From a virus, in IMG/VR virus record IMGVR_UViG_3300022841_000014, positions 2,724 to 66,723 of that record: a DNA stretch of 64,000 bases. One strand, given 5' to 3'. Below are positions 8,727-55,314 of this stretch, one piece after another. The notes beneath the pieces were generated by a model. The model searched no databases. It saw only the letters and a list, made by a program, of their open reading frames with translations, and was not told the origin of the DNA. The stretch's first letter is position 1. Every line of letters begins with the position of its first letter. The position numbers were made by a program, and so were the translations under genes.

Positions 8727-8732
8727 AAACAA

Positions 8733-11466: not shown

Positions 11467-11489
11467 AGAGGGGGAAACCCCTCTTTTTT
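11467..11489 (+). terminator. intrinsic terminator
   Basis: AGAGGGG-GAAA-CCCCTCT followed by a T tract. Confidence 0.85.
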
Positions 11490-11502
11490 ATTAAAAACAA
11501 AA

Positions 11503-32145: not shown

Positions 32146-35100
32146 TTATTTAGCAGAATTTTCAAGAAAATTATAAAGTTCTTTTGGGTCACGTTCTGTT
32201 TGTGCAATCATTGGTATTAACTTTTTAAATTTAATCCAAGATTTTAATTCACCTCTATTTTTACCATTTTCATATTCTTCATCAATACTCCAAGGCATTA
32301 TTTGAGTCATAAAAGAATAAGTTTTTTCTAAAGTGTTAAGTGAAACTGCAGGTGATCTAAACACTCTAAGATTTTCACGTATATCGTAAAATTGCATAAA
32401 TTCTGATTGTTGTCTTCTAAATATGTAAGCTAATGTAAATAATAGATCATCATCATCTTCTTCAGCTGCTGCATATGTTAACATTGCTGCTGCTGCCATT
32501 ATACCTGTTATCATAAGTTCAGTTACTGTTTTTCTAACGTTAGATCTTTCCATATCAGACATTTCTTTCCAGTTTTCAGTAGCTAATTGTAATTTAAAAC
32601 TAGATACAGCTGGAAAGACAGAATGTCTCATAAATCTAATAAAGCTAGTGTAAGTACCTTCATCAAATCTTTTCATTTCATAATCATAAATTTTTTGTTC
32701 ATCTGTTAAATCTTTTGATTCAATTGTAGAATGCATAACACCTGCGTACCTACGTTTATAAGAACTTATCATCCATTTTCTAAACATCATAAATAGTTTA
32801 CCCCACCATGCTCTTTCTATATGTGCTTGCAATTTAGAATCATATTGACCGTGTAATTTAATAATTAATTTTCTTATTAATTGTTGATGATGTATTTCAC
32901 CAACTTCTCTTATTGGCTTAGAACTATGGGAACTAAATTCAGCATGTTTGTTTATTTCAACACTTGATACACCGTCTTTATCAGTTTTCATTTCATAAGC
33001 TTCATACAAAGACATTGCTTCTTTTTTAGTAACTACTTTACCATTTTTGTTTATAAATTTACCATCTTTGTTTTTAACTTTAGTAGCAGTCATTATAGCA
33101 ATCATTAATGTTGATTGAGCTTCATGTTCCCCCATTGCATTTAAAGAATGCATTGTTCCAGAATGAGCTAATGATCTTAATTTACTTTTATTTTCAAAAG
33201 CATTTTTAATAATGTTAAAATCACCCATTGTATCAAAAAGTTCATTTAATATATTAATTTTACTAGTATTAATAGTACTACCTACATCGTTTAATATTTT
33301 AGGTAATTCTTTCATATATATACCTTGTGCTTTTACTAAATCTTTTAAAGTAAATATATCAGCACCAGCTGCTTCAATCATATTTTGAAGTTTAGCTTGT
33401 ACAACGTTAGGTACAGCAGTCATTGCATTTAAAGCAAGTTGTAAATCAGCTGTATAACCAGCTATAGAATTTGAAACTTGATTTATACTAACTCCCATAA
33501 ATTTACCTGCATATACATCACTTATACCATAAATTCTGTTTTCAATCATTGATTGAACTTTTTTGTATAAATTAGAATCTTTACCAGGCATTTTTACAAG
33601 ATCTTCTTCTGATATAGTACCATCTTTTTTAAACATTGCAACAAATGCTTTTGTAGTAGAATTTCTTTTAATAACTTGTGAACCACTTATTACATGTAAC
33701 AACACATCAGCTTCTGCTTCTATTTCTTTTTTGTTATGATAATTTTCGGACATCATAGTGTCCATAGCAAGCATAGTACCCAAATCATATGATTGATCTT
33801 TTGCTTCTAATTTATTTCTATAGTAAACTGGAATAGAATGAATAGGTTTATTATTAAGATCAGTACGAGTACGTTCGTACATTGTATCTTCTTCTTCATT
33901 AATTACATTACCATATGTATCTTCATCTTTTCTTGATTTAAATACGTCACCAACGTTAGTTTTAATTGCGTTTAAAGCTTGACCACTTAATATTTTATCA
34001 CTAGTTGATTGGGTTATACCTCCCATTTTAATAAATATAGGACCTTTTTCTATTGGTTGATTAAATAAACTATTTATACCTACTGTTTTTTTATTATTTT
34101 CTTTTAACTGTTGAACATAAGAATCATAATATTCTTTTTGAACACCTGTTAAACTTTTATATTTAGGATTTAACCATTTAGAAATAGGTATTCCTTTTTT
34201 AAAGTTAGCTTTAATCCAATCTTTCTTTTCTTTTGAAACTTTTTTATGTTCTTTTTCTCCGTATTCTAACTTACTTAATTTATTTTGAAAATTTTCAAGT
34301 ATATCATTAAATTCACCTTTGTATTTAGTTATAAAATATTGATTATCTTTAGTAATATCAAGCATAAAATCATAACGTTTTTTATTAGAAGAACCTTGAA
34401 AATTAGCTTTTCTTTCTCTTACTGCTATTTTATTACGTTGAATAATAGAAGCTTTTCTTGTTTTTGCTTCTACAGTGTCTATTTTTTCGCTTAATATGCT
34501 AATTAAAGGATGGTCTATTAGTTTTTCACTTGAAAGTTGTAAATCAAGACTGCTGATATCCATATTAATAATGTCAAGACCTTTTCTTATTCTACTTCTT
34601 TTTTCAGCTTCTATAACTTCCATGTTTTCATTCATTTTATTGAAAACATATTCATCTTTAGTTATACCATAAGGCATTTCATTTCTATAATCAATTTTAT
34701 ATTGATCTTGATATTCAGTATTTACTCTATCAAATTTTATAGCTAATGGTTCAGTTAAAGCATCTCTCATTTTATTATCTAATGCTTTACTAACTTTTTT
34801 ATATTTTCCTACTACAAAAGTTAAAGTTTTATCTATTTTATTATAATCTTCTTGTGTAATTTTATCATACTTTTTTAAATTTATAAGTACGTTAGCAATA
34901 GCATCATTATTAGAAAATACAGCCATATAAGCTTTAAATCTACTTAAATAATTAAAATCAGGATTTTCTTTATTTTCTAAACCTTTTTCTAAACCTATTA
35001 ATTCAGTTACTGAAAATTCAAGATATTCAAGTATTGCTTTTTCTTTAGATTTATCTTGTAATTCTTTAAGTCTTTCTTGAATTTCTCTATATTTTTCTTT

Positions 35101-37668
35101 ATATTTACCACCTTTAGCATCTGCTGATTTAATTTTAACATCTTCAAGAGTTGCATAAATTCTAGTAATAAGACTTTTTACATTTGTTAAATTATCTATT
35201 AAATTTAATTCAATTTCTTCTTTAGTTCTAGTTTCTTTTTTACTACTTGTTCTTTTTTCAAAAGTCATGTTAAGAGATGACTGATTATTATCAGTATATT
35301 CTTCTGATGCAATGTCTATAATAGAATTTATAATTTGATCAACTTTAATAGAGTCGTATTTTTCAATATTTAATCCTAAAAATTGTTTAATTGCATTTAT
35401 AAATTGTTTCCATACAGATTCTTGACTTTCAACAGCTTTTAATTTACTTCTAAAAGCAGTGTTAGTCATTATTTCTGATGCAAATTCATTTATATCAGTA
35501 AAACCATAATTATCACCTTTTAAATCTTTATATTCAACAGCTTTAGTATAATAATCGTAAGCTTTTTGTATACTATTTCTAAAAGCAATTTGTTTATCAG
35601 TTTTAGGTTGATTAAGAGCTACAGCTGTTATGTCATGCGTTCCTTCATGTAATATAGACTCTATAGCATAATAAAGATTAGAGTCTCCTATAATGTCTTT
35701 ATTTATTAATATAGTACGAGTTAAACTATCATATCTACCAAAAACTTCATCTGTTAAAACTGCAGATGTTACAAATTTAATTTTAGATCTACTAGGTAAT
35801 AAAGCTTTCATTAAAGCTAAACCTTCTTCATTCATATTTATATTAGGATTAGAATATAAATTTCTAAGAAAATCATTTAATGTTGTAGGTTTAAATGTAC
35901 CATCAAACAATTGATTTAATACATCTGATTTGTTTTTATTTGTTTCTTCTTCTGATATGTTAGCAGGAGCTATTGAAACTTTTGTTTTGTCAAACGCAAA
36001 AGATTTGTATTCTTTTTTTTCAGATTGCTGACGTTCTAACTTTAAAGTAAATGATTGATTTGCATCTTCTAATTTTGTAGTAACTTCATTCCAAGTATTT
36101 CCAAATTCATCAGTAATTTCTTGAACACGTCCTTTGTATAATTTATTAAGAACACTAGTTAGTTTATTAGTATAAAAAGCTTCAACAGGTTTATTTTTTT
36201 CTAAACTTTCAGTTTCTAATTCTTGTCTTTTTTCTTTTGCTTTTTTAATAAAACCTTCTTTTGTTTTACTATATAAAATATAATCATTATTAATTTCTGC
36301 AGTATATCCTCCTGGTAATCTTTCATTACCTTTATTATAATATTTATCTGCATTATTAATTAAATCATCATATTTTATTAATTCTTGCATCAAGGTTTTA
36401 TGCTTTTGTACTTTAGCAGCAGTTTCACCTGTAGGAAATAATACTTTTGTATAACCTTTTTTAACACTATCTTGTACAATAGATTTTACAAAGAAATTAA
36501 CCCAATTACCTTCTTTGTTTAATAATTGTAAAAATTGATTATTATTATTTGAATTATTGTTTTTACTAGAAGATTCTAAATATTCTTCGTATTCTTCAAC
36601 CGTATCAAAGTTTTCAGAAATTAATTTTGTGTCTAAACTAGCATCATTAATAATTAAATCTTTTTTATCTCTATTTTTTTGAAATAAGTCAGATTGTAAT
36701 TCTAATATTCTACGTACTCCAGATTTTTCAACTTTTTCTAACTCAGATATTTCATATTCAGACATACCCTCATCTCTAAGAGCATCTTTACCCATCTCTG
36801 TTAGTTTATTTCTATTTTTAGATTGTTGTTCATCACTTCTAAACCATCCAATCATATTAGCAATTCCATTACTAAACTCATTAATATGAGCTATTGATTT
36901 GTTTATAATATTAGGAGTTTTTATAGCATTTTCTGTATAATTACTACCACCTGGAACTGTTAAAGTAGAATGATATGATGTGTTAGGAAGTACTTCATTA
37001 TATATTTTATCAAATTCTTTTTTTGTTATTTCAACTTTTCCCCCTCCATCATCAACACTTTTAAATTGATAATATATATTTCTATCACTATAATATTTAT
37101 ATAAACTATTATTAGCTTCAAATTCTACATCTTTAGAGTTATTTCTAGTTTGAGTTTTTTTAGCAATTTTAATTTCAACAGCAAAACTATTATCAGCTAA
37201 TAAAGATGTAATAATTTCTTCTCTATCAGTAATATTTTTATCTAATATAAGTTGTTTTTGCGCTTTAGGTATTTGAAGTTTTGTTAAAGTCTCATTAATA
37301 TCCCAACCATTCTTTTTACCTTTAGCAAATACTTGTATAGCTTTATCAGTATTAAGAATTTCTACAGCTGACAATTTATAATTAACATTATTACTGTTCC
37401 TAAACTTGTCAATAGCAATCATGTAACGATTATAAAGTTTATCTGATATTGTTATATTAACAGTACCAGGAAGATCAGTTACGTCGTTTCTTACGTAACT
37501 AATCATTTTTTCGTTTACTTTATCATTAATTCTTTTAATAGAATCTAAATCACTTTTATCAAATTTTTGAGTAACAGTTGCTACACCGTTAGTAATTTTA
37601 CTTATATTTTTTACTTCTCTTTGTACAAGATTTTGTACAGTTACATCTACGTCTAATTTACACGCCAT
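32146..37668 (-). CDS. giant virion/ejection polyvalent protein with zincin metallopeptidase domain
   Basis: 1840 aa; HEGTH...NEFASE zincin motif; adjacent to the vRNAP. Confidence 0.8.
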   Translation of the reverse strand: MACKLDVDVTVQNLVQREVKNISKITNGVATVTQKFDKSDLDSIKRINDKVNEKMISYVRNDVTDLPGTVNITISDKLYNRYMIAIDKFRNSNNVNYKLSAVEILNTDKAIQVFAKGKKNGWDINETLTKLQIPKAQKQLILDKNITDREEIITSLLADNSFAVEIKIAKKTQTRNNSKDVEFEANNSLYKYYSDRNIYYQFKSVDDGGGKVEITKKEFDKIYNEVLPNTSYHSTLTVPGGSNYTENAIKTPNIINKSIAHINEFSNGIANMIGWFRSDEQQSKNRNKLTEMGKDALRDEGMSEYEISELEKVEKSGVRRILELQSDLFQKNRDKKDLIINDASLDTKLISENFDTVEEYEEYLESSSKNNNSNNNNQFLQLLNKEGNWVNFFVKSIVQDSVKKGYTKVLFPTGETAAKVQKHKTLMQELIKYDDLINNADKYYNKGNERLPGGYTAEINNDYILYSKTKEGFIKKAKEKRQELETESLEKNKPVEAFYTNKLTSVLNKLYKGRVQEITDEFGNTWNEVTTKLEDANQSFTLKLERQQSEKKEYKSFAFDKTKVSIAPANISEEETNKNKSDVLNQLFDGTFKPTTLNDFLRNLYSNPNINMNEEGLALMKALLPSRSKIKFVTSAVLTDEVFGRYDSLTRTILINKDIIGDSNLYYAIESILHEGTHDITAVALNQPKTDKQIAFRNSIQKAYDYYTKAVEYKDLKGDNYGFTDINEFASEIMTNTAFRSKLKAVESQESVWKQFINAIKQFLGLNIEKYDSIKVDQIINSIIDIASEEYTDNNQSSLNMTFEKRTSSKKETRTKEEIELNLIDNLTNVKSLITRIYATLEDVKIKSADAKGGKYKEKYREIQERLKELQDKSKEKAILEYLEFSVTELIGLEKGLENKENPDFNYLSRFKAYMAVFSNNDAIANVLINLKKYDKITQEDYNKIDKTLTFVVGKYKKVSKALDNKMRDALTEPLAIKFDRVNTEYQDQYKIDYRNEMPYGITKDEYVFNKMNENMEVIEAEKRSRIRKGLDIINMDISSLDLQLSSEKLIDHPLISILSEKIDTVEAKTRKASIIQRNKIAVRERKANFQGSSNKKRYDFMLDITKDNQYFITKYKGEFNDILENFQNKLSKLEYGEKEHKKVSKEKKDWIKANFKKGIPISKWLNPKYKSLTGVQKEYYDSYVQQLKENNKKTVGINSLFNQPIEKGPIFIKMGGITQSTSDKILSGQALNAIKTNVGDVFKSRKDEDTYGNVINEEEDTMYERTRTDLNNKPIHSIPVYYRNKLEAKDQSYDLGTMLAMDTMMSENYHNKKEIEAEADVLLHVISGSQVIKRNSTTKAFVAMFKKDGTISEEDLVKMPGKDSNLYKKVQSMIENRIYGISDVYAGKFMGVSINQVSNSIAGYTADLQLALNAMTAVPNVVQAKLQNMIEAAGADIFTLKDLVKAQGIYMKELPKILNDVGSTINTSKINILNELFDTMGDFNIIKNAFENKSKLRSLAHSGTMHSLNAMGEHEAQSTLMIAIMTATKVKNKDGKFINKNGKVVTKKEAMSLYEAYEMKTDKDGVSSVEINKHAEFSSHSSKPIREVGEIHHQQLIRKLIIKLHGQYDSKLQAHIERAWWGKLFMMFRKWMISSYKRRYAGVMHSTIESKDLTDEQKIYDYEMKRFDEGTYTSFIRFMRHSVFPAVSSFKLQLATENWKEMSDMERSNVRKTVTELMITGIMAAAAMLTYAAAEEDDDDLLFTLAYIFRRQQSEFMQFYDIRENLRVFRSPAVSLNTLEKTYSFMTQIMPWSIDEEYENGKNRGELKSWIKFKKLIPMIAQTERDPKELYNFLENSAK

Positions 37669-37679
37669 AATTTATTTTT

Positions 37680-40600
37680 TTAACATTGTGGTTCATTTGG
37701 TACATCATTTTCACCAAATAAATCTAATTGTTCTCCTTCTTTTTGTTCATTATTAACGTTTAATAATTCTTTTTGTGCAAGATATAAACCTTTTAAAAAA
37801 GCTTTATCTATTAATTGATTAGTATTATGAGTAAATTTATTATATTCTAAAAGTTTTATAGCTGCTTCAGAATTTTTATTTTGTAAAAAGCTTTCTACAA
37901 CTAAATCTTTCATTATTTCTAAATTACCTTTTTTACCTTTTTCTGTTAATTTAGTTGTTATTTTTTTACCATAACCTCCTATTTTTACATAATTATCGTA
38001 AATAGTTTTATTAAAATTTCCATTTTTATTAGTTTGATAAGCATGTTCTACACTTCCATATTCTCTAAATATACCATCTACACTTTCATATGTAAATTTA
38101 CGAGATGCTAAATTAGATAATATCTTTGTAGATTTTTCAGATTCAGCTTGACCATAGTACACATTTATAGTTTTATTAGGAATTAATTTATCATTAGATT
38201 CTTGTAAAGATACAATATTTTCATCAGTTTTATTATTAATTAAATAATCCAATGCTGTAGCATGAGAAGGTTCTCCAAGTTCTTTATAATAAACAATAGC
38301 TTTATCTTTTAAAACACCTGATTTAAGTTGTTCTTGAATCCATTCTTTTCTTTCATTTAATTTATTATATATAGTACCATCAAGATTATTTAAATATTTT
38401 TCAGCAAAAGCATTGTTAACATCACCATTATCAAAAATCCAACTGATATAAGCTTTAACACTTTCTTTAGTAGATTTAGTAGCTATTAAACCTTTAGCTA
38501 TTTCAGTAGGTACAGAACTAAATGGATTGCCAAAATGAGTATTAGAATTATTAACTCTCATACTAAACACACCATCAATAGATTTAGCATAAGCTACACC
38601 TGCTTTTTGATATACAGATTTAAGAACTACATTATCAGTAGCAGTTTTATTTCCTAACTGTGAATAAATTTTAATAGTTTCTACATTTACATTTTGTAAA
38701 GATACATTATTTTCTTGACTTTCTACTGTTTCTTCAGATTCTTTTATCTCATTATTAAATATAAGATCTTTTAATTGATTTGTATTTTTATATTCTTGAG
38801 TTTCTAAAAAATGAGAAGTTTTACTCATATCAACAAATTCAAAGATTGCAAGCTGTTTATTTGCATTATCTTTAATTGGATTAACTCCAAAATTATTAAT
38901 TTCAAAACTACTATTTTCTTTACCGTATTCTTTATAATTTACTTTAGAAGATTTATTTTTATAACCTTTTAATTCTATTTGCTCATAGACAGGTCTATAT
39001 TCTTTGTTAAATTTCATATTACCTTTATATTCATATAAAAAGGTTGTATTTGCATCTAAATTTTTAGAATTAGTTTCTGTTTTAATATAAGGAGTGTAAG
39101 ATATTGTAGATTTATCAACTACCCCAAATTCATCTTCTCTACTGGATACTTGATAAGATTTTTGTGCACCTAATTCTTTAATAAAAACTAAATTATTAGT
39201 ATTATTTCCAATTTTTTGAATTAAATCACTATTAATTTGTCTTACAAGTTTATTATCATCATAATTATTCTGAGCATATTCTTTATGAAAACTTTGAGCA
39301 TAACTAGAGTTTCCCATTTCATTCATTTTTTCTTTAATAAATGCTTGAACTGATTGAAACTTAGTATTATTTATTTTATGATAATTTAAAAAGAATTCAT
39401 GGGGAATCATTTCATTAAAATCAATTAATGATTGATTAAATCCATTCATTAAAAATGATGCTTTAATAATATCTTTAGCTAATTTAAAATCTTGTTTATA
39501 AATATCATAAAAAGCATTTGATATATCATTTTTTTGATTTACTTCAAGTCTACCAATGTCAATACCAAAAGATTCATTATAAAAAGTTAAAGAATTAACA
39601 AAAGCATTGTCTGAATTTTCATTTTTATTATCTTTATATGCAACTAATCTTTCTTTTACATTTTTAACAAACTCAACAGGATTTCCTTCAACTTCTAATA
39701 CTTCATATTTAGACATTAAAGAAGTGTAAAGTTCTTTACTTAATTTAGATATCATTTTCTTATCACTAGATCTACCCATTGAACCACCATAAGAACCTGC
39801 TGTTGTCATTGAAATATTGTCTATAACATTTAAAAATTCTTTATTAGCACTAAGAAATATACTTGGATTAGCATTTAAAACATCAGATGCAAAAAATACA
39901 GAATTTTTTAATTGACTACCTAATGAAGTTAATACACCATCTCTAATGTATTTATCCATATGACCATTAATTTCACCTTTAGTTTCTTGTTTGTTAAATA
40001 ACTTTAATAAATTATTTTGATAAACTAACATATCTGAAAAATTTCTACCTGATCCTAATGTATCAAATCTAGAAAGGTTAACAGAAGCATCTAGTTTTTT
40101 AGATTGGTCTTGATATTCTTTAAATGTCATTAATAATTCTACATTTTTTCTTTTATCATCTTTTTCATTATAATTATTAGCAAGATCTTCATAAGAATAT
40201 ACTATTCTTTTTTGATTTTTAAGTTTTTCTATTTCTGCAATTATTAGTTTTTTATTATTTGTATTAATTAAATTAGCAACTGCATCATATAACATTGCAT
40301 CATAAGAAGACATTGATTTATATTTATCATCTTTTTTAACAGATATAGATTCAAAATCTTTTGTAAATTTAGTAAGCTCTTTTAATATTGGTTGACCCAT
40401 AAAAGCATCAGTCCAATAAGGATGTACACCCGCTCTAGTAAGCATAAATGCTACACCAGATGTGTATGTATTATAATTACCTAATTCTATGTAAGGATCT
40501 TTAGCATTATCAACAAAAGCATTCATAAAAGCAGATATAGTATCTCCTATTTTAAATGACATTAATGTTTCATAATTAACACTTTTGCCTGTTTTTTCTT

Positions 40601-43600
40601 TTATTCTTGCAGCAGCTATTTTAGCTTGATTTACAGTAAGTTTTACAGAATTAGAATTTCCTGTATCTGGATTATTATCAAATACAGTTTCATTATTTTC
40701 ATTTATAAAACCTACTCCTAAATTATAACCATTAAATCTAAGATTAACCATGTTTTTAGATATATTATGATCAACAGCCATGTTTGCTGATATACCAACA
40801 CCTGATTTACCTAACATGTAAGTATTTTTAAGTTCTACTTGGTATATACCATCATAAAACTTAAAATTTTCATTAACTTGTTTATCGCTATTTAAAGATT
40901 TAATGTGATTTTGTAAATAATCAAAATCAATAGGTTTAATAATTTCTGAATATGTAGATTTATTAGTTAATATAGACCAATACGAGTCAAATAACATATT
41001 GTTAAGACCTTTTGTAGAATCTCTATTAGATTCACTTTTAATTATTTTTCTAACACCACCTTCGTTTATACTTTCACTTAATGCTTTTGCTCCTTCTGAT
41101 TCACCTTTAACTAAATGATCTACTATTATATTAAAATAATCATTATTTAAAAGAGTTTCATCAGTAGCAGAAAACAATTTTACCATTTCTTCTTGTGATA
41201 AATCAATACCAGTATTTTCTACAAGTGCATCATAAAAATCAGTAATATTAAATACATCCGTAGTATCAGATACATTATCTTTTACTAATGTTTTTAAATA
41301 TTCTTTAGCAGCTTTATAAGTTTTTTTAGTATATAAAGTTTTAAGTTCAGGTAACATTACAAACATTTTGTCAATATCAAAGTCACTACCTGTCTTAGTA
41401 GTGATTTCAGTATAAGCTACAATGGTATCATTCATATGAGGAGGTAATATACCAACTATTTCTAAAGCGTCGTTAGAACTCATCCCTTGGTTTGGTATAC
41501 GATATCCAATTGCTTTTAAAACATCTTTACCAAGCATGTCTTTTAATTTTCCTTCTTTAGCTAACTGTCTATAGTTAGGAATAGCCTTAGCTATATCAGA
41601 ATGTGAAATAAATATTTGACCTGGTCTTTGTTTTATTGTAGTTATTTTAGTCCCATCTTCATTTGTTACTATATCTTCATATAATGTAGGTGGTTTTAAT
41701 TCATTCTTTTCAGCTAACCAAGTTACACCTTGTTCATCAGCTGTAACAATATCTAAACCATAGTTAGACATTTGTATAAATGATCCACCGTTTGTTTTAA
41801 TATTACTTGCTGCTTTTCTTATTTTAGAAAATAATATAGAATACATTTTATCCCTCATTGAAGGCATTGCTTCAATTAACATTTTCTTATTTACAGCATC
41901 TTTCATGTTATCTGTATAATCTTCAGGGTTGTCATTAATTTCACCCTGTATGATATCATACATTTTATCAGAATTTATTTTATTATCAGCACCTTTTTCT
42001 AATAATTTAGAAAGTTTGTTTATACCATTGTTAGAAAGATCTGATAAAATACTATTTATATGATCTATAATACCAAAACCTTGATAGTCAACACCATCAA
42101 CATCATACACTTCATCTTTTTTTACTGTTGAGTATATGTTTTTTTGTATTTGAGAACCAAGTAATGTTTGTTTCATTAATTTAACTGGAAGATCTTGTTG
42201 AAGTTTCCATTCAAAATTATTTAAAACTTGAATATTAAAATTTATTTTATCACCAGATATATCAGTTGGTATATCGGCTCCTACTTTTACACCATCAAGA
42301 GTAACAGCTTCATCAATTTTTTGCTCAATCATTTGATTATAAAAAGACTCTAATTTAGAACCTTTAACAAGCATTGGTGTAAGAACCGCTTGTGAATATT
42401 TCATATAAGTAGGAGCTCCATTTACTACACCGTAATAAACACCTTTTAATGGTTGTGCTGATAACTTAAGTTCAGAAGATGTAAAAGGTTCTTTATTTTT
42501 TTCAATCATTTTATCATAAACTACATTATGAGCATCTGTCCATTTACCTGTTCTTTCAAGAATAAATTTCCATCTCATAGGTGTAATCCATGCTTGTGCA
42601 TCTGTTTGATTTACCCCTTCTTTGTAAGCACCTATTATAGATTTTCTTTCTGATTCTTTTTCTATACCAGCTAGTTTTAATGAATCATCTAAATTATCGT
42701 AAAATTTAGAATCAACTATTTGATTTTCAACTACTGACATATTAAAAGTTTCATCACCTTCTGTTAAACCTAATCTTAAATATGTACCATCTGTATAAGT
42801 TGCAGGTACACGCTTAAAGAAATCTACCATATTTTTATAATAAGCAGGATCTCCAGTAAATAATTTAGTATACTCTACATTTGCTATAATAGTATTGATA
42901 GCATAATCAGATACCATTTGATACAAAGAAGCTCTTGTAAACACACCGTTTTCTGCACCATAACTTCTTCTTATTTGATTATCAATAGCAGCAAAAGTAT
43001 AAGCGTTTTCACCAGTTTTTTTAATTATACCTTTAGACATTAAATCGGTTACATTATCACCAACTCTATTTGTCATCATTTTATTTAAAATATTAGTTAT
43101 AACATCTTTATGATCTTCATTTAATGAATCTTTTTCTAAATAACTAGGTGAACCATCTTTATTAAATATATTAGAACCAACTAATTTAGATTGTAAAGTA
43201 TTATAGTTAATTTCAGGTGATATTTGAGAAACAAAAGCTTGACCTAATAATTTTTTAGAAGTTTCTTTGCTATTTTCATATTCTTCAAATGTTTTTAAAA
43301 ATATATCTTTACCATTATTATCCTTGTAAGAACCTATATTACCTCCTTTATCTGTGTGATAATGTATTTTTAATTTACTATATTCTTTGTTTTTTAAATC
43401 ATCATAAGCTTCAACCATTCTATTGTATTCATCTGTAAAATAATTGTAAAAAATGTCTTTAGTTTTTTTAGAAAAATCCATATCTTCAAAACTTTTCATT
43501 TCAGCTAATGTTTCATTCATAAACAAGCCTATTTTAATTTCATAAGCAGTGTTTTTATCAGCAGGTAATATAGTAGAATAAATAGGCTTTACAGATTGAG

Positions 43601-45656
43601 TTAATTCATTTGTATTAAGATTAGTTACACTAGCACCCATTACACCACCAAATCTACTTATTATTTGATCTATTACCGATACAGATTTATTATCAACAGC
43701 ATCTTTACTTTTAAATTCTTCTTGATATTGTAAAAATCTAGTAGCAGAAAACTCTTCTAATCTTTTATTAGATTCAATTTCTCTATTTTTTTCTGAATAA
43801 ACATATGTACCATCTGCACGTAAGTCTTCAGCAAGTAAATAGTCAGCAAATAATGTATGACCGTTTATTGCATTTTTTTTAAGATTTCTTAATAAATCTT
43901 TATTTTCTTTAAATAAATTAATTGTATTTGATAAAAAAGAAGCATTACCATAAACCCAAAACATTTTATTCATACTGTAAACAGTAGAATCTTTTACATC
44001 ATTTTGAGTTTTAGCAGTATAAACAGCTAAGTCATTAAATAATCTAGATTTATTGTTTTCAATAAAAGAATAATCTTCGTTATTTTGATTTTTAGTAAAG
44101 TCTTTTAATGCTAAATTTAAAGCACCATAAAGATCAGTAATTTGTATTTTAACATCACTTTTAAAAGTGTCAGTATTTGCATTTTCAATAAGCATTGAAT
44201 GCATTACAAAATCATCTATATTATTAATTCCTAATTTATTAAATATAGAAATTAAACCTTTTTTCTTATTTAAAACACTTCTACTGTAAGCAAGTGAAAA
44301 ATCATCATCAGTCATAATTGATAAATCTTCCCCAGAAAAAATATCATTAAATCTTTTAAATGAATCTTTAAATTCATTACTTAAAGATTGTAAAAGTGCT
44401 GTATCTATTTTACCATTTTTAATAAAAACTTTATTAATTTTTTCTTGCCAGTTTTTAAGAATTTTAGATTCTACACTAGATTGTTTAGCAGCGTCAAATG
44501 CTTTAAAAACACCTTTAATTATATTATTTTCATAAACCATGTGTTGGTTTTTGAAATGAGTCATTGCTACTACAAATTCACTTTTTTTATTTTGATTATA
44601 TTCTTCACTTTCAAGTAAATTAATAAGATCTTCATAATGAGGTTTTATTTTAATTTCATTTTTAATAAGACTTATCATCTTTACAAAAACGTCTTCTATT
44701 TTACCACCTACCATATTAGGTACAACATTTGCCAATAATCTTAATAAATCTTCATGTACTGCATTACCTTCTATAAATTTACTTTGTTCAAATACATCTG
44801 TAAGCATGGGAATAAACATGCTATTACCTTGTGTTATATTATAATTGGGATCTATTTCATAAGCACGTAAAAAAGACAAAAGAAGTTTTACATTAGCTCC
44901 TGCTTTATTTTTACTGTTTTTTTCTACAGAATTAACTGCTTCACCCCTATCAGAATTATCATCCTTTTCTTTTTCTTCTTCTATTTCATTAGTTTTATCA
45001 TTAATAGTCAAACCTTTAGATATAAAATAAGAAATTATTTCATTTTTAAGATCAGCTTTACCATGTTCTAAACCTTCTGATATTCTTATTCTTTCATCAT
45101 TTAAAATTATTTCAGAATTTATTTCGTCTTTGTTAGTGTCAAAATCTTCAAGAAGTTGTTTATCTGAAAAAGTAAGAAGATTTTCAAGACCTGTTTTTAA
45201 ATCTTTTGCAGAACTTAAAGTAGATTGTATAAAATTATTTATATATTTTTCTATATTAATATTTTTAATAGATTCTAAATCATTAAAATTGTTTTTAATA
45301 TTTTCATTAAATATTTCAGCTGCAATAATATTTACAACTTCTTTTATTTTAGTACTTCTATTATCTACATTAAGATATTCAAAATTTCTAGGTGTTATAT
45401 CAATATGATTATTTTCTTTATCTAAAAAATAATGTATAGACTTACCATTTCTAATTTCAGTATATAACAATGGTTCACCTTGATCGTTAAGTCTTTTACC
45501 TTCTGGATCAAAGTTATTACTGTCAATATTTTTCCAATCACCAAAAACTTTTAAAAAATTAAGCGAACTTAATTTATTATATTTTTCTTTAGCAACAGTA
45601 GGGTTTTTAAATACTTTAACTAATTTATTGTATGTTTTACTTATTGTGCAGTTCAT
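37680..45656 (-). CDS. virion-packaged RNA polymerase (phi14:2 gp66-like)
   Basis: 2658 aa; GYRIPNQG and catalytic GSDFDIDK; TDAQAWI; AFVDNAKDP. Confidence 0.92.
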   Translation of the reverse strand: MNCTISKTYNKLVKVFKNPTVAKEKYNKLSSLNFLKVFGDWKNIDSNNFDPEGKRLNDQGEPLLYTEIRNGKSIHYFLDKENNHIDITPRNFEYLNVDNRSTKIKEVVNIIAAEIFNENIKNNFNDLESIKNINIEKYINNFIQSTLSSAKDLKTGLENLLTFSDKQLLEDFDTNKDEINSEIILNDERIRISEGLEHGKADLKNEIISYFISKGLTINDKTNEIEEEKEKDDNSDRGEAVNSVEKNSKNKAGANVKLLLSFLRAYEIDPNYNITQGNSMFIPMLTDVFEQSKFIEGNAVHEDLLRLLANVVPNMVGGKIEDVFVKMISLIKNEIKIKPHYEDLINLLESEEYNQNKKSEFVVAMTHFKNQHMVYENNIIKGVFKAFDAAKQSSVESKILKNWQEKINKVFIKNGKIDTALLQSLSNEFKDSFKRFNDIFSGEDLSIMTDDDFSLAYSRSVLNKKKGLISIFNKLGINNIDDFVMHSMLIENANTDTFKSDVKIQITDLYGALNLALKDFTKNQNNEDYSFIENNKSRLFNDLAVYTAKTQNDVKDSTVYSMNKMFWVYGNASFLSNTINLFKENKDLLRNLKKNAINGHTLFADYLLAEDLRADGTYVYSEKNREIESNKRLEEFSATRFLQYQEEFKSKDAVDNKSVSVIDQIISRFGGVMGASVTNLNTNELTQSVKPIYSTILPADKNTAYEIKIGLFMNETLAEMKSFEDMDFSKKTKDIFYNYFTDEYNRMVEAYDDLKNKEYSKLKIHYHTDKGGNIGSYKDNNGKDIFLKTFEEYENSKETSKKLLGQAFVSQISPEINYNTLQSKLVGSNIFNKDGSPSYLEKDSLNEDHKDVITNILNKMMTNRVGDNVTDLMSKGIIKKTGENAYTFAAIDNQIRRSYGAENGVFTRASLYQMVSDYAINTIIANVEYTKLFTGDPAYYKNMVDFFKRVPATYTDGTYLRLGLTEGDETFNMSVVENQIVDSKFYDNLDDSLKLAGIEKESERKSIIGAYKEGVNQTDAQAWITPMRWKFILERTGKWTDAHNVVYDKMIEKNKEPFTSSELKLSAQPLKGVYYGVVNGAPTYMKYSQAVLTPMLVKGSKLESFYNQMIEQKIDEAVTLDGVKVGADIPTDISGDKINFNIQVLNNFEWKLQQDLPVKLMKQTLLGSQIQKNIYSTVKKDEVYDVDGVDYQGFGIIDHINSILSDLSNNGINKLSKLLEKGADNKINSDKMYDIIQGEINDNPEDYTDNMKDAVNKKMLIEAMPSMRDKMYSILFSKIRKAASNIKTNGGSFIQMSNYGLDIVTADEQGVTWLAEKNELKPPTLYEDIVTNEDGTKITTIKQRPGQIFISHSDIAKAIPNYRQLAKEGKLKDMLGKDVLKAIGYRIPNQGMSSNDALEIVGILPPHMNDTIVAYTEITTKTGSDFDIDKMFVMLPELKTLYTKKTYKAAKEYLKTLVKDNVSDTTDVFNITDFYDALVENTGIDLSQEEMVKLFSATDETLLNNDYFNIIVDHLVKGESEGAKALSESINEGGVRKIIKSESNRDSTKGLNNMLFDSYWSILTNKSTYSEIIKPIDFDYLQNHIKSLNSDKQVNENFKFYDGIYQVELKNTYMLGKSGVGISANMAVDHNISKNMVNLRFNGYNLGVGFINENNETVFDNNPDTGNSNSVKLTVNQAKIAAARIKEKTGKSVNYETLMSFKIGDTISAFMNAFVDNAKDPYIELGNYNTYTSGVAFMLTRAGVHPYWTDAFMGQPILKELTKFTKDFESISVKKDDKYKSMSSYDAMLYDAVANLINTNNKKLIIAEIEKLKNQKRIVYSYEDLANNYNEKDDKRKNVELLMTFKEYQDQSKKLDASVNLSRFDTLGSGRNFSDMLVYQNNLLKLFNKQETKGEINGHMDKYIRDGVLTSLGSQLKNSVFFASDVLNANPSIFLSANKEFLNVIDNISMTTAGSYGGSMGRSSDKKMISKLSKELYTSLMSKYEVLEVEGNPVEFVKNVKERLVAYKDNKNENSDNAFVNSLTFYNESFGIDIGRLEVNQKNDISNAFYDIYKQDFKLAKDIIKASFLMNGFNQSLIDFNEMIPHEFFLNYHKINNTKFQSVQAFIKEKMNEMGNSSYAQSFHKEYAQNNYDDNKLVRQINSDLIQKIGNNTNNLVFIKELGAQKSYQVSSREDEFGVVDKSTISYTPYIKTETNSKNLDANTTFLYEYKGNMKFNKEYRPVYEQIELKGYKNKSSKVNYKEYGKENSSFEINNFGVNPIKDNANKQLAIFEFVDMSKTSHFLETQEYKNTNQLKDLIFNNEIKESEETVESQENNVSLQNVNVETIKIYSQLGNKTATDNVVLKSVYQKAGVAYAKSIDGVFSMRVNNSNTHFGNPFSSVPTEIAKGLIATKSTKESVKAYISWIFDNGDVNNAFAEKYLNNLDGTIYNKLNERKEWIQEQLKSGVLKDKAIVYYKELGEPSHATALDYLINNKTDENIVSLQESNDKLIPNKTINVYYGQAESEKSTKILSNLASRKFTYESVDGIFREYGSVEHAYQTNKNGNFNKTIYDNYVKIGGYGKKITTKLTEKGKKGNLEIMKDLVVESFLQNKNSEAAIKLLEYNKFTHNTNQLIDKAFLKGLYLAQKELLNVNNEQKEGEQLDLFGENDVPNEPQC
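38202..38714. repeat. 21-nt direct repeats (38202-38222, 38694-38714) flanking an in-frame module of the RNAP gene
   Basis: TTGTAAAGATACA(A/T)TATTTTC, one mismatch, 492 nt apart. Confidence 0.7.
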
Positions 45657-45659
45657 ATA

Positions 45660-48600
45660 TTATTTATTACAACCTGGATCAAGGTCATCTTTTTGTTCGT
45701 CTTCTTTATTAATTTTATTAACTTTACTTACTATATTTACAAATTTAGATTTATTTCTAGAATTACTTTTTACCTTAACTACAGGTTTAATTACATCTTC
45801 AAGTTTTTCAGCTTTATCTTTTGTTTCTTTTGCTTCTTTATCATTTTCAGCCATTGTAATTTGATTTTCTAAATTATCTAAAAATATTTTTTCTTCAGCA
45901 CTAATTTGATTAGCATCATCTTCTAATGTTTCTTTTTTAGACTTTTTATTTTCTTTTAAAATTTTAATAGGTGTTTTTTCAATCTTTTCTTTTAAATCAC
46001 TCTTTGCTTTTTTCTTTTTATTAGCTTTAACTTGTAATGGATCTATTCCCAAATTAGGATCTATATAAATTGCAGTAGAATCTTGAAACATAGCTTGTCC
46101 TAATTTAGAATCAGTACTTAATATGCTATTAAATAAATGTTTTTTGTAAGCAACTGTGTTAGAAGCTTTTTTATTTATTTGTCTATTTTTTTCAGTAGTA
46201 AGCCATTCAATTATTCTAGGTTTAGCATCTTTAAAATTTTCTGAAGATATTAATTCATCTTGCATTCTTAAACTACTACCTTCTATACTAAATGCATTTT
46301 TATCACTTTGACCTTCATATACTAAATTATTGACTAAATCAATAATAGTTGTATTTTTAGTGTTTTTATCTAAAGCTTTTAATTCAGTATTTATATATTC
46401 TAATTCAAGTTCTGTAAAGATACTATTTTTTATTAACATATCCAAACTATCTTTATATGTTAATTTAATAGAAGAGCCTATCATTACTTCTACAATCTTA
46501 TATAGTAATTCAGCTTCTATATTGTTTATACGTCTTTGGTTAAGCTTTAAAGGCATTTTACGACCATTAGCCATTGGTACTGATATATATATTTGACCAG
46601 CATTTTTAACAGTTCCAAAACTTTCTGTTGTTTTATTACTGCTATTTTTAAGAACACCTATTGAATCAGAAAACAAAACTTCTACTTTGTCAATAGATTC
46701 TACTCCAAATAAATTAGATTTACCATTTTCATCAAATATTTTATTTGCAGCTGGTTTACCATCAACCCTATCCATTTGTATTCTACCAGGTTTTTGAAAC
46801 ATTATAATACTTTTAGGTTTTTTACCTTCTAGCATTTGCATAATAACATTTCTTTTTATAGTAGCTGCAGCAGCAAATACTTCAATACCAAGTTCTTCGT
46901 TTGCAAATGATAAATGACTAAATCCACCGTTTGCAACGTTAACTTTAATTGGTAAAAACTGAACTAAAGAATCAATTTCTTCTTCTGTTAATGTGCCGTT
47001 ATTATCTAACACATCTCTAAATAAAAATAAAGCTTCATTTGCTCTATCATTAGTTTGACCGTTACCTAATTCAAAAGTAACTTCTTCTCCTTTTTTATCA
47101 CGTTGTTCTTCTGAATATTGAAAAAACAATGGGTCTGCAGATAAGTTACCTTTAGAATCTACTAATTTAGCATGACTTTCACTACTTCTATTAACAGTGT
47201 TTTCAGGTAATCTATTTATATCATTAGATGTACCTTCATTAATAGTACCTCCTGTTGAAATATTATCACTATTAGTAAATTCATTACCAGGTTGTTGTGA
47301 AGAACTACTTGACTTATTTTTTTTAGTTTGTAGATAATTTACACCTCTTTGAAACCAATTTCTTATTTTCCCATTTAAACCAGGTATTGCTGCTTTAGCT
47401 TGTTCTAATGTAACTTTATTTGCACTAAATGATTCTGATACTTCAAGTCCACTAGCATTTATAGGAAAAAACAACTTACCTCCAGAATAAACAGATATTA
47501 ATTCTTTTACACCAGCACTTCTTTCTCCTTCATTAGTTTTATTTAAAGCGTCTCTGTCAGCCTGATATTTAGCTTTAATTTTAGAAACTAAGCCAGTGTA
47601 AGTTTTATCTTTTATAGTACTTACTTTTTTTGAAAAGCTGTTTGACTCCTCACCAGCTTTAACATCGTACAATACTATAAAATCAGTATCATCTATTATA
47701 GAAGTTTCTTTAAATTTTTCATCTCTATAATCTTTAATATCTAAAGCTTCTTTTAAAAGAATCTTTTCTTCTTCATTAATCTCTTTAAGATTAGAGTTTT
47801 CTTCTTCTACGTTATCAACTTCTTCTTGTTGATCATTTGTAGTAACTGTAGGATTAGTTTTAGGATTAGGCTTACTTTCTTTAGGAACTTCTTTCCTACT
47901 TACTTCTAATTCAACAATACTTTTATAATTTTCATTAAGTATTTCTACTACTAAAGTTGATTCATTAGCTTTATTATATTTAATTTGATTAGAAATATTT
48001 AAATCTTTTAACTCAGGATTAGACATAACTATAATATCAATTAATTCTTGAGTTAATGGTTCTAATATAAGATCTTCACTTGTTTTTGAAAGTTTAGTTG
48101 TTAAAATATCAAATAAAGCATTATTATTATCAACTTGTTTAACTAAATTAACTTTTTTAGATCTAACTTTTTTTCTTTCTTGAGTTTTCTTTTCTTTATT
48201 ATCTTTTTTAATTATTTCTTTTTCAGAGTCTTCTTTTTTTGTTACTTCTTCTTCTTGTTTTTTAACAGTTTCTTCTTTAATAGTTTTTTCAGCTTCTATG
48301 TCTTGTTCTACTTTAAGATCAAATAAATTTTGAAGTTGTGTAGGATCATAAAGCATATCTAAGATTGCATTTTGTTGAATTATAGAATTACTAATATCAG
48401 ATTGTTCTCTTAATTTATTACCATAAATATTATTACCTTTATTTTTTTTATTAGCAAAATTAAGAAATTCTTCACTTGTACCATATCCTAAATTTTTTGC
48501 ATTAAATTCTTCTAAAGTTAAAGATAACCCTACGTCATCTTTAAATTTATTATAACCTTTAGTTGATTGTTCAGTTTGTAATGCATATTCTTTTAATAAT

Positions 48601-50501
48601 TCAAGTTCTTGTAATGTTACTTCATTTTCTACTTCAATTTTGTTAGATTCAAGAAATCTTTTACGTTGTTTTGTAAAAGTTTCAAATGCATTCATTTGAT
48701 TATAAAAAGCTGAAACTTTTTCAGTGTCTTCACCTTTTATTGGATTAAAATATTTAAGATATTCAGAAGATTTTTCATAATCTTTCTGCATAGATTTAGC
48801 TTGTTCTACAATATTAGTTACAACAGATTTTTTTGTTTGATTTTCACCTGTTACTTCATTAGAAGCATTTACTTTATCTATAATATCTTCATTTTGACTA
48901 AGAGCTTTTTCAAGTATTTCAACACCCATTTCACCATTAGTTATAAAAGGCATTAAAAAAGACGATGTAAAATCATTTTGAGCCACTTTAAGACGTGCTT
49001 TTTGTGGAGCTGGTAATACACCATCATTAGCTTCTTTTATTGCATTCATTTCATCAAAAACCTTATCAAGAGCTTCTAATTTTTTTACTTCATTACCATA
49101 TTCAGTAACATATTTATCATTAATTTCTCTTTTACCGTTTTCATCAACTGTATATAATTTATCTGTACCCATTGTATACAAATTTATCATAGACTCCATA
49201 TGTGGAGCTAATTCAGCTTTTCTTTTTTTAGTAGCTTTATTATTAGATATTTGACTATATACATTCATTGGACCACCAAGTATACCACCTAATGCAATAG
49301 CTTTTTGACCTTCTACAGATGTTAAAGTGTGTAAATAAGAATCTAGTAAGCCAGTTTCTTTTCCTTCTGCTTTGTCCATAAACTTATGTTCAACAGAACT
49401 TTGCATAGCTTCTTCCCAAAAACCTTCTCTTGCAAAACCTTTACCAAATTCACCAGCATATTCTTCTATTCTTCCTTTTGTAAGTAAAGATTTAGGATCT
49501 TTTATAAACTTACCAGCATCATCTAAATATTGAGAAGCTACTTTAGAACCACCTTTTGCTCCAAATAATATTTTATTACTAATTGCATTAGGTCCTACTA
49601 GTATAGCTACGTTAGACCAAAATATATTTCTACCAAGGTCAGCTTTATTTTCAGTAAAAAGTTTTTCAGCTTCTTCTTCAGTTAATCCTTTTTCTAATTG
49701 TTTATTTATAAAGTTTTCTTTTTTATTTTCAAAAGCTCTCATTGCGCCTCCTGATTCAGCACCTGCTTCAAAAAAAGTATTAGCTACAGTTGCGTTAAAC
49801 ACATCCATACCTTTATCAGTTGCTTTAATAGTTTTTAAAGCATTCTGAGCAGCTTCTGCTGATTTATACATGCTATTAGCTCCTTTAGTAACACTATTCA
49901 TCATGATTTTACCAAGACCTAGTGACTTAAGAGCTGCTCCTGGAACAAACATACTTGCAATATAACCAACTCCATCAGCACCTTCTGTAGCCCAAAAATC
50001 TATAGAAGTTAAATTATCCATTAAACTACCATTCTTTACAGAATTTTTAACATAAACAGGTAAAGCTTCATTATTTATATATTGATTAGCGTCTTCTATA
50101 GTTCTTATCCAAGCATTGTCAAATATAGTTTCAACAGCAGGGTCATCACCAAAAGGTGTTGCAATTGCGGCAACTAAACCACCAATCATACCTGGCATTT
50201 TAGCAACTTCAGCAAGTACTTTAACTCCAACTCTACCAACACCTGTCATAGTTTTGTCAAAATTAGATTGACGATATGCTCTTATTTCATCTAAGTCTTG
50301 ACGAAGAGGATCTTCCTTACCTGTTAAATAATCTTGATTAGTAAAATCAATTTCATGTTCTCTTTCTTCTAAGTTATTAAATAAATTATCAGATAAAGTT
50401 TCGGTTTTTACATTTGGATCAAATATATCACTATTTGAATTTTCCATTTTATTAAGATTATCCTTTTTGGTAGGATCAAATATGTCTGAATTATTTTGCA
50501 T
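45660..50501 (-). CDS. giant virion/ejection protein
   Basis: 1613 aa; Gly/Ala-rich amphipathic N-terminal region; directly upstream of the vRNAP. Confidence 0.8.
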   Translation of the reverse strand: MQNNSDIFDPTKKDNLNKMENSNSDIFDPNVKTETLSDNLFNNLEEREHEIDFTNQDYLTGKEDPLRQDLDEIRAYRQSNFDKTMTGVGRVGVKVLAEVAKMPGMIGGLVAAIATPFGDDPAVETIFDNAWIRTIEDANQYINNEALPVYVKNSVKNGSLMDNLTSIDFWATEGADGVGYIASMFVPGAALKSLGLGKIMMNSVTKGANSMYKSAEAAQNALKTIKATDKGMDVFNATVANTFFEAGAESGGAMRAFENKKENFINKQLEKGLTEEEAEKLFTENKADLGRNIFWSNVAILVGPNAISNKILFGAKGGSKVASQYLDDAGKFIKDPKSLLTKGRIEEYAGEFGKGFAREGFWEEAMQSSVEHKFMDKAEGKETGLLDSYLHTLTSVEGQKAIALGGILGGPMNVYSQISNNKATKKRKAELAPHMESMINLYTMGTDKLYTVDENGKREINDKYVTEYGNEVKKLEALDKVFDEMNAIKEANDGVLPAPQKARLKVAQNDFTSSFLMPFITNGEMGVEILEKALSQNEDIIDKVNASNEVTGENQTKKSVVTNIVEQAKSMQKDYEKSSEYLKYFNPIKGEDTEKVSAFYNQMNAFETFTKQRKRFLESNKIEVENEVTLQELELLKEYALQTEQSTKGYNKFKDDVGLSLTLEEFNAKNLGYGTSEEFLNFANKKNKGNNIYGNKLREQSDISNSIIQQNAILDMLYDPTQLQNLFDLKVEQDIEAEKTIKEETVKKQEEEVTKKEDSEKEIIKKDNKEKKTQERKKVRSKKVNLVKQVDNNNALFDILTTKLSKTSEDLILEPLTQELIDIIVMSNPELKDLNISNQIKYNKANESTLVVEILNENYKSIVELEVSRKEVPKESKPNPKTNPTVTTNDQQEEVDNVEEENSNLKEINEEEKILLKEALDIKDYRDEKFKETSIIDDTDFIVLYDVKAGEESNSFSKKVSTIKDKTYTGLVSKIKAKYQADRDALNKTNEGERSAGVKELISVYSGGKLFFPINASGLEVSESFSANKVTLEQAKAAIPGLNGKIRNWFQRGVNYLQTKKNKSSSSSQQPGNEFTNSDNISTGGTINEGTSNDINRLPENTVNRSSESHAKLVDSKGNLSADPLFFQYSEEQRDKKGEEVTFELGNGQTNDRANEALFLFRDVLDNNGTLTEEEIDSLVQFLPIKVNVANGGFSHLSFANEELGIEVFAAAATIKRNVIMQMLEGKKPKSIIMFQKPGRIQMDRVDGKPAANKIFDENGKSNLFGVESIDKVEVLFSDSIGVLKNSSNKTTESFGTVKNAGQIYISVPMANGRKMPLKLNQRRINNIEAELLYKIVEVMIGSSIKLTYKDSLDMLIKNSIFTELELEYINTELKALDKNTKNTTIIDLVNNLVYEGQSDKNAFSIEGSSLRMQDELISSENFKDAKPRIIEWLTTEKNRQINKKASNTVAYKKHLFNSILSTDSKLGQAMFQDSTAIYIDPNLGIDPLQVKANKKKKAKSDLKEKIEKTPIKILKENKKSKKETLEDDANQISAEEKIFLDNLENQITMAENDKEAKETKDKAEKLEDVIKPVVKVKSNSRNKSKFVNIVSKVNKINKEDEQKDDLDPGCNK

Positions 50502-54295: not shown

Positions 54296-55314
54296 TATTT
54301 GTATATTTTTACTCTATTACTAAATATAAACTTACCTTCTGGAAAATCAAAAGAAGTTTCATCTTCTTCAACTGTGTTACGTTTACCATTAGAACCCATT
54401 CCTTGATCTATTCCACCCATTGGATTTTGTTCATGTGTACCACCACCTTTAAAATGATTTAACATTCCACCATCTGCATTTTCATTAGTCATTGTATTAA
54501 CAGCAGAAGATGTTTCAGCTTGCATAGGTTCACTTTGTATTGGCTGACCATCTATTGGCTGTATTTGAGATTGAGCTTGAAATTTTTTTTGATTTTCTTC
54601 TCTTCTTTTAGATAAAAAATTATCAAAATCTCCTTTAGAAAATCCTTTATCTGATTTTTTATTATAAATAGGAGTTTGATCAACTCGTCTTTCTAAAGGT
54701 TGTTGTCTAAACTCGTTAGATTTTGAATTACCAGACATACCTAAATCTTCTCTAGGTGTAAAATCTTCATCATAAGCATTATCCCAACGATCATTTAATT
54801 TTTTTCTATGATCTTTATCTTTACCCGCCCACCAATTATCTAAGTATATATCTTTACCTTTTATAGTACCTTCTGCATAATCTTTTAAATTAACAGGACC
54901 CATTCTAAGGTCACCTAATGCAAGTATATCTTGTTGTTTTTCAGTAAGAATGCTTGCGTCACCTGTTTCATTGTCTATAATATCAGTTATATATTGAGGT
55001 ATTTTTTTACCTAAAGTTTTTAAATAATTTTTAGTACGAACAGCTGAGTAATATATTCTATTACTTGTTCCTTTGAAATGACCAGTTTGATGTTTACCAT
55101 CTTCACCATACATTTTACTGTAACCAACACCAGTTTCAAATTGATATTTACCTCGACCTGGACCACCACTACGTTGTTTAATAGTAGGGTCTCCTCCTGA
55201 TTCTAAATTACTAATTTGATACAAAAGATTTTCATAGGTTTCTCTTGTACCACCTTTCTCTTTAACAATGTTATTTAAAACATCATCATATAAATCTTTT
55301 GTTTTATCTGGCAT
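54295..55314 (-). CDS. virion protein with lysozyme-like/transglycosylase domain
   Basis: LESGG...GRGKYQF; C-terminal GGTHEQNP.GG...VE..ET...IFSNR. Confidence 0.65.
   Translation of the reverse strand: MPDKTKDLYDDVLNNIVKEKGGTRETYENLLYQISNLESGGDPTIKQRSGGPGRGKYQFETGVGYSKMYGEDGKHQTGHFKGTSNRIYYSAVRTKNYLKTLGKKIPQYITDIIDNETGDASILTEKQQDILALGDLRMGPVNLKDYAEGTIKGKDIYLDNWWAGKDKDHRKKLNDRWDNAYDEDFTPREDLGMSGNSKSNEFRQQPLERRVDQTPIYNKKSDKGFSKGDFDNFLSKRREENQKKFQAQSQIQPIDGQPIQSEPMQAETSSAVNTMTNENADGGMLNHFKGGGTHEQNPMGGIDQGMGSNGKRNTVEEDETSFDFPEGKFIFSNRVKIYK

Follow-up and report, generated by a model that had tools for sequence, protein, structure and literature searches.

Facing terminal cysteines suggest that three giant RNA polymerase proteins of crassviruses are linked head to tail by disulfides

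In a 64,000-nucleotide (nt) stretch of viral DNA (positions 2,724 to 66,723 of the IMG/VR record IMGVR_UViG_3300022841_000014, called the window below), we found evidence that three giant proteins of the virion RNA polymerase (RNAP) module are probably packaged as one covalent chain, joined head to tail by disulfides. The three proteins, here named X, R (the polymerase itself) and Z, are encoded by consecutive genes on the minus strand, over a chain extent of 32146-50501, and together contain four cysteines (Cys) in 6111 residues, each at most three residues from one of the four termini at which neighbouring proteins would face each other. The argument for a chain rests on sequence comparison across the order Crassvirales and on analogy with a disulfide in the capsid of cyanopodophage A4. 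An earlier note on this DNA had counted by eye four Cys in about 6100 amino acids (aa), all at facing termini, and had proposed a chain in gene order. The computational count agrees (third residue from the end of X, residue 3 and last residue of R, residue 3 of Z), translation confirms that the two outer ends, the N-terminus of X and the C-terminus of Z, carry none, and the bases that bounded the interval given in that note, 37660 and 45671, mark the outer limits of the Z Cys3 and X Cys1611 codons (Table 1).

The only Cys of X closes a low-complexity C-terminal tail (...PGCNK), R has only Cys3 (MNC...) and its final residue, Cys2658 (...EPQC), and the only Cys of Z is residue 3 (MAC...). The genes are separated by 3 nt (X/R) and 11 nt (R/Z); at 45657-45662 X and R share a reading frame, with a TAA and one Tyr codon between them. 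In the other open reading frames (ORFs) of the window of at least 150 aa, Cys makes up 1.08% of the residues (127 of 11,732), so about 66 would be expected in the X-R-Z chain. By our own arithmetic, the chance that four Cys placed at random in 6111 positions would each hit a different inner terminus within three residues is about 1e-12.

The identity of the three proteins was assigned by comparison with Cellulophaga phage phi14:2. R is 37% identical to phi14:2 gp66 over 78% of the protein and matches the crystal structure of gp66 (PDB 6VR4) with E = 0. The profile built here for X matches phi14:2 gp67 (8560-13953 in locus L081), and the one built for Z, which covers Z residues 549-1838, also matches the zincin-like gp65. 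The window thereby has the parts of a virion RNAP module of the phi14:2 type, with a polymerase carrying a DFDxD motif, homologues of gp67 and gp65 flanking it, and muzzle and cargo genes upstream. Searches of PHROGs and Pfam with seven window proteins were uninformative for X, R and Z: Z had a weak match in PHROGs, R a sub-threshold match to Fve, and no intein or redox domain appeared. For homologues, presence in the virion is known: the phi14:2 record notes evidence from tandem mass spectrometry, and crAss001 gp47, gp49 and gp50 were detected by mass spectrometry, according to the accessible part of the structural atlas of that phage (PMC10172136).

For a comparison across the order, IMG/VR was scanned with R; 91 stretches matched, 87 were confirmed and the best 80 were kept as loci, which together with phi14:2, crAss001 and the window gave 83 chains. 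Each ORF was taken to begin at the first ATG following a stop, and iterated profiles of three kinds (RNAP core, Z, cargo protein 2) served to label the chain members. When the 83 chains were clustered on the identity of their RNAP cores, 57 groups resulted at 90%, 50 at 70% and 33 at 50%; one representative was taken for each cluster of at least 70% identity, with L045 excluded, so that 49 chains were counted. Loci L028 and L045 were left out since their giant ORFs are broken by frameshifts at A-runs, and L034 as a truncated close relative of the all-fused L019. The breaks lie in Lys-rich stretches (L028 at about 15300-15400; L045 at about 8560-8700, leaving ORFs of 928 and 1278 aa), reading resumes in another frame, and they could be assembly errors or slippage. 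An apparent exception, L062, dissolved on inspection, as its Z starts at a TTG and then reads MAKKGC. In 16 loci (L031, L063, L064, L066 and L069-L080) long RNAP ORFs require TAG to stand for Gln (table 15) and are absent under table 11 or 4; the chain proteins of these recoded loci have more internal Cys (3-13), and the junction pair is still kept.

The terminal Cys seen in the window are conserved across Crassvirales. At 63 of the 64 junctions in the 49 lineages, a Cys lies within 10 residues of both facing termini, at a distance of 1-9 from the end on the C-terminal side (mode 2) and at position 2-7 on the N-terminal side (mode 3-4). The outer ends behave differently: none of the 44 complete C-termini of Z has a Cys within the last 10 residues, and the first protein of the chain has an N-terminal Cys at only five of 34 complete N-termini. 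Three of these five (L033, L052 and crAss001) have X on the other strand, where X has a C-terminal Cys of its own; in L016 the first protein is cut by the contig end, and the protein of L025 has 12 Cys in all, so that its N-terminal one is possibly incidental. Overall, the chain proteins contain 249 Cys in 281,969 residues (0.088%, 132 of them terminal), which makes them nearly Cys-free in the manner of N4 gp50, compared with 0.99% in the other ORFs of the same loci. A Cys occurs in the first 10 residues of 7.6%, and in the last 10 residues of 13.6%, of 118 such non-chain ORFs, and multiplying these two frequencies gives a facing pair at about 1% of junctions by chance. Aligned over their last 300 residues, ten X homologues share a single near-invariant column, the Cys, which sits in a tail rich in K, N, E and D; the residues that flank the junction Cys are not conserved.

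Two further features of the junctions were observed. At 18 of the 64 the N-terminal Cys is followed by Pro, often in an N..S..EW-like context (MxxCPN...; for instance in L011, L029, L049, L050, L058, L065-L067 and L070); depending on the lineage, such N-termini belong to R or to Z, and these residues may form a small docking motif beside the link. Internal Cys, up to 13 in R, are tolerated in L033, L047, L052, L053, L025, L082 and L087, among them the Bacteroides phages crAss001 and DAC15, and the clade of the window itself has almost none.

The facing pairs also follow the fission and fusion of the genes. Lineages with X, R and Z as separate genes have two pairs, those in which X and R are fused and Z stands apart have only the pair between R and Z, and L067, where X is followed by a fused RZ gene, has only the pair between X and R; L012, with one extra split, has one extra pair. 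In the five lineages where a single gene encodes the whole chain (L019, L026, L035, L038 and L055; 4627-5346 aa) there is no Cys at all, and the C-terminal 1300 aa of these proteins match the Z profile. The flanks of a split junction are colinear on a fused protein, with the X tail of L067 aligning to residues 1123-1458, and its RZ head to residues 1552-1843, of the L038 protein. On a tree of the RNAP core (FastTree, 790 columns), split and fused architectures are interspersed, with a minimum of three changes at the R/Z junction and five at the X/R junction, and the Cys pair tracks the architecture in all eight. The two comparative tests that the earlier note had named for its chain, namely conservation of the terminal Cys and their loss where genes are fused, came out as it had foreseen. 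As the thiols occur together on facing ends and vanish together once those ends are joined by a peptide, we consider a bond between facing thiols their best explanation.

These results also bear on the possibility that each terminal Cys acts independently, pairing with another copy of its own protein or tethering it to a third component of the virion. Lone terminal Cys do exist, in the 560-aa protein of the window, in FpV4 gp30 and in p-crAssphage gp47. However, among the ends of the chain proteins only the inner ones carry Cys, with a separately encoded X accounting for the few N-terminal cases on first proteins; both Cys of a junction are gained and lost together in the eight fission and fusion events, and the extra split of L012 brings exactly one extra pair, so that we judge independent roles improbable.

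An independent protein library gave a similar picture. When the Z module (1191 aa) was compared with 1.84 billion representative proteins, 1597 proteins matched with E values of 0.001 or below, of which the best 150 were analysed. Among these best 150, 131 are Z-sized, that is, 1000-2500 aa long and starting with M; the first Cys lies at position 3-7 in 124 of the 131, the Z of the window included, and is the only Cys in 119 of these, and a C-terminal Cys is absent from all 131. The remaining seven Z-sized proteins have no Cys anywhere and are assumed here to be fragments of fused genes. Seven of the best 150 are at least 2500 aa long (three with an N-terminal Cys only, three without Cys, and one with 10 Cys, none of them terminal), and the other 12 entries, short or not starting with M, all lack Cys.

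We also considered whether the pattern could arise at the level of DNA or of annotation, as neutral leftover Cys, as a nucleotide-level feature of the junction such as translational coupling, or as an artefact of ORF calling. The tight packing of the genes, with gaps in the window as short as 3 and 11 nt, and the AT-rich genomes, in which TGT is the usual Cys codon, could favour such an origin. Against this, the pair is present at 63 of 64 junctions where about 1% would be expected, and it does not depend on adjacency. In crAss001, gp47 is on the opposite strand from gp50 and gp49 and yet has its single Cys at position -3, with Cys 5, Cys -9 and one internal Cys in gp50 and a single Cys 5 in gp49; an opposite-strand X with the pair kept is also found in DAC15, L033, L047 and L052. 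In FpV4 and p-crAssphage the pair is present at their one junction of adjacent genes. The pair is kept as well across R/Z gaps of 354-541 nt at five loci in three clusters (L005, L006, L007, L017 and L021), where the gap in the window is 11 nt. The positions of the Cys vary, junctions use both Cys codons, their gaps fall in all three frames, and the same pattern is seen under the independent gene calls of another library. A non-functional origin is contradicted by the conservation, fusion, strand and independent-library results, and we find it scarcely credible.

Two other candidates were set aside. Readthrough of the stop between X and R was rejected as a general explanation, because the junction gaps of the relatives occupy all three frames. 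A split intein or trans-splicing was rejected too: a junction has its Cys 1-9 residues before the C-terminus of one protein and at position 2-7 of the next, so close to the termini that there is no space for intein fragments (of about 100 aa), and Pfam, with E values up to 0.01 allowed, shows no Hint or intein domain in any of the three proteins.

The opposite-strand cases also refine what the earlier note had proposed. Its disulfide chain is supported by the conservation, by the loss of Cys upon fusion and by the A4 precedent, but the order it assigned, that of the genes, has to be replaced by the order of the proteins, X-R-Z, because an X of the crAss001 kind keeps its C-terminal Cys on the other strand.

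We hypothesise that the C-terminal Cys of X would bond Cys3 of R and that the last residue of R would bond Cys3 of Z, two disulfides that would give a linear polymer of about 6100 residues with the polarity of the single giant polypeptide of phages with fused genes. Such a link would keep a 1:1:1 ratio in packaging and would make the three proteins exit the capsid as one thread in a fixed order; with the links only a few residues from the chain ends, the joined product would be nearly unbranched and could therefore thread a narrow channel. Other Cys would be absent because the ejected proteins have to pass unfolded through the tail and the oxidising periplasm, where the bond would survive until it is cut by thiol reductants in the cytoplasm and the subunits are freed. 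More tentatively, and as a reading that is possible but that we would not yet favour, the terminal pairs may be post-translational stitches that restore continuity after gene splits, giving a thread of fixed order, X before the polymerase and the polymerase before Z, in which the reducing cytoplasm cuts the stitch and entry itself frees the virion RNAP, and which would have arisen independently in crass phages and in A4.

The one structural precedent for the proposed chemistry, by analogy, is A4. Cryo-electron microscopy of this cyanopodophage resolved a disulfide between gp27 Cys1715 and gp26 Cys5 in the pre-ejectosome inside the packed capsid, as described in the accessible part of the article (PMC12002296). 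In the record of Anabaena phage A-4L, gp27 has 1717 aa with Cys 1715 (position -3) as its only Cys, and gp26, encoded by the next gene, has 1114 aa with Cys 5 as its only one. The signature is the same as at the X/R and R/Z junctions, with consecutive giant internal or ejection proteins that carry facing Cys and are otherwise free of them; A4 has one such link, whereas crass phages have up to two or three in series, one of them on the RNA polymerase. Even with E values up to 10 allowed, gp26-29 of A-4L showed no similarity to the crass profiles for X, R, Z and cargo protein 2, so the likeness would be one of mechanism and not of family. The account given of A4 is that of a local stabiliser, the C-terminal helix of gp27 being inserted in a cleft of gp26 within a folded pre-ejectosome, and the accessible part of the article reports neither conservation of the bond, nor a connection to gene fusion, nor a chain model (PMC12002296).

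This precedent also lends itself to a rival view, in which the disulfides are real but structural, locking the three proteins into a stable and stoichiometric internal body while the procapsid assembles and DNA is packaged, with threading and reductive release irrelevant or incidental. The helix-in-cleft site of the A4 bond and its description as stabilising are in line with this view, and fused homologues would secure a 1:1:1 stoichiometry as well as a thread. A stabilising bond could, however, sit anywhere on an interface, and yet 127 of the 128 junction Cys are no more than nine residues from a chain end; the Cys of X moreover ends a low-complexity tail of about 250 residues in which nothing else is conserved, which looks more like a tether than a docking surface. 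We regard a purely structural role as rather unlikely. When the C-terminal 120 aa of X and the N-terminal 320 aa of R were put together in a complex prediction, each as an alignment of 10 rows, the score was 0.17 against a mark of 0.32, with the fold of the partner uncertain, which weighs on neither side.

A different chemistry could be envisaged, in which a shared metal ion or some other thiol-based link bridges the facing thiols. Sequence alone cannot separate a disulfide from a metal bridge, and a His adjoins the Cys in a few lineages, as in MNKHCV or LLNHCR. Nevertheless, with one Cys at each terminus a junction would offer only two ligands, no conserved His, Asp or second Cys is found nearby, and the identical signature of A4 is a disulfide in the cryo-electron microscopy map, all of which makes a metal or similar link very improbable.

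Other phages help to delimit the signature. Direct homologues of X, R and Z, namely gp67-gp66-gp65 of phi14:2 and gp47-gp50-gp49 of crAss001, have the same terminal Cys. The accessible text of the crAss001 atlas lists virion disulfides for the tail and for gp57 only, its Extended Data Tables 2 and 3 being known from their legends (PMC10172136). The Drobysheva preprint on phi14:2 describes the fused polyprotein as 'likely cleaved', and its text, the preprint as distinct from the published Nature version, has no occurrence of cysteine or disulfide. In N4-like phages (Schitoviridae), the giant virion RNAP gp50/gp71 and its companion ejection proteins gp51/72 and gp52/73 are almost free of Cys, which has been ascribed to passage through the oxidising periplasm (PMC11445570); the internal depletion of the crass chain, 0.088% against 0.99%, fits the same logic. 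The N4-type virion RNAP, in contrast, is made as one chain of about 3500 aa that lacks Cys and terminal pairs, and so has nothing to join, and the N4 and crass polymerase folds are unrelated, as stated in the accessible part of PMC13434306. The core proteins of T7 (gp14, gp15 and gp16) are also consecutive, Cys-poor ejection proteins, gp15 and gp16 having no Cys and gp14 only Cys 2, but they have no facing pair, so the signature is not general to podovirus core proteins.

Several observations weigh against a disulfide-linked chain. No disulfide between proteins of the X, R or Z type has been observed in any crass virion, and the case is comparative. Virions assemble in the reducing cytoplasm and many of the hosts are anaerobes, which makes it hard to account for the timing and the route of bond formation. 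The record of the window, which is 66% complete, gave no match to thioredoxin, glutaredoxin or an Erv1-type oxidase, and the Erv1/ALR search matched no control genome either. At one junction, in L001, the pattern is off, with the Cys of X 32 residues from the end and its partner at position 3. When the two junctions are tested separately, sign tests on the architecture changes give p = 0.25 (R/Z) and p = 0.0625 (X/R), neither below 0.05; pooling the eight of eight changes gives p of about 0.008 by our own arithmetic, and the FastTree tree behind them was quickly made, from one region. The N-terminal 1500-2500 aa of the fused proteins were taken as the equivalent of X by position and size only, the X profile being narrow (14 proteins) and recognising among the fused forms only L059 and L061. 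The seven Cys-free Z-sized proteins of the library come without genomic context. Finally, the authors of the A4 work interpret their bond as a stabiliser of a folded core and not as a means of forming a thread, in the accessible part of their article (PMC12002296).

The genes around the chain are listed with it in Table 1. Since the muzzle gene and the cargo protein 1 domains lie upstream, the X-R-Z block belongs to the tail and cargo module, and from its sequence the window is the tail/cargo module of a crAss-like phage related to phi14:2. The profile for cargo protein 2 gathers 12 proteins (10 different), including crAss001 gp46 (534 aa, minus strand of L082), and 11 of the 12 have no Cys. 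Next to it, the 339-aa ORF has no Cys and the 560-aa ORF has only Cys 9; the two overlap by 1 nt and share a crAss_CARG1 domain by Pfam, whose positions 7-66 end the first and 67-125 begin the second, and this split carries no Cys pair. The place of cargo protein 1 is likewise taken by two genes in phi14:2, g070 and g069. ORFs of similar size upstream of the cargo protein 2 homologue in close relatives (L004, L005, L010 and phi14:2 g070) have no Cys. Besides Cys 9 of the 560-aa protein, terminal Cys that lack a facing partner are found in FpV4 gp30 (L085, Cys 5) and in p-crAssphage gp47 (L086, position -2), and these lone Cys of cargo-region proteins might link homodimers or attach to another part of the virion.

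Table 1. Genes and cysteine codons of the proposed chain and its upstream neighbours, in window coordinates.
Feature	Coordinates	Strand	Description
Z gene	32146..37668	-	1840-aa RNAP-associated protein, phi14:2 gp65 homologue; HEGTH at 674
Z Cys3 codon (TGT)	37660..37662	-	Faces R C-terminus
R gene	37680..45656	-	2658-aa virion RNA polymerase; DFDID at 1425
R Cys2658 codon (TGT)	37683..37685	-	Final R residue
R Cys3 codon (TGC)	45648..45650	-	Faces X C-terminus
X gene	45660..50501	-	1613-aa virion protein, phi14:2 gp67 homologue; sole Cys is residue 1611 (...PGCNK)
X Cys1611 codon (TGT)	45669..45671	-	
Cargo-protein-2-like gene	50491..52611	-	706 aa; just upstream of X; no Cys, none facing X; marks the chain start
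Cargo protein 1, two ORFs (339 aa, 560 aa)	52613..55314	-	One crAss_CARG1 domain between them
Crassvirus muzzle protein gene	55376..59353	-	1325 aa, 4 internal Cys; PF25731 (crAss_MUZ), E = 1e-191

Crassviruses are among the most abundant viruses of the human gut, and the proposed chain bears on how they pass three giant RNAP proteins through a narrow tail. In the main text of full-text articles, our search found no report on terminal Cys or disulfides of crass RNAP proteins; beyond the A4 precedent for the chemistry, the order-wide Cys rule, the serial two-link chain that includes the polymerase and the coupling to gene fission and fusion appear to be new. The 2023 structural atlas of crAss001 could not see the three giant RNAP proteins (PMC10172136), and a 2026 paper on N4 counts among the open matters how the three crass proteins relate to the single-chain polymerase of N4 (PMC13434306), both in the parts of these articles that are accessible. 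The finding of facing Cys in split genes and of none in fused genes suggests that the working unit is one covalent chain, a reading that runs counter to the published guess, by which the fused form would be cleaved into its parts. The chain rule would give the three proteins a defined order and stoichiometry. If it is true, linked ejection proteins of other phages could also be sought by a simple sequence signature, from which the ejection order of unknown phages could be read, and crassviruses may provide a natural case in which a disulfide makes up for gene fission.

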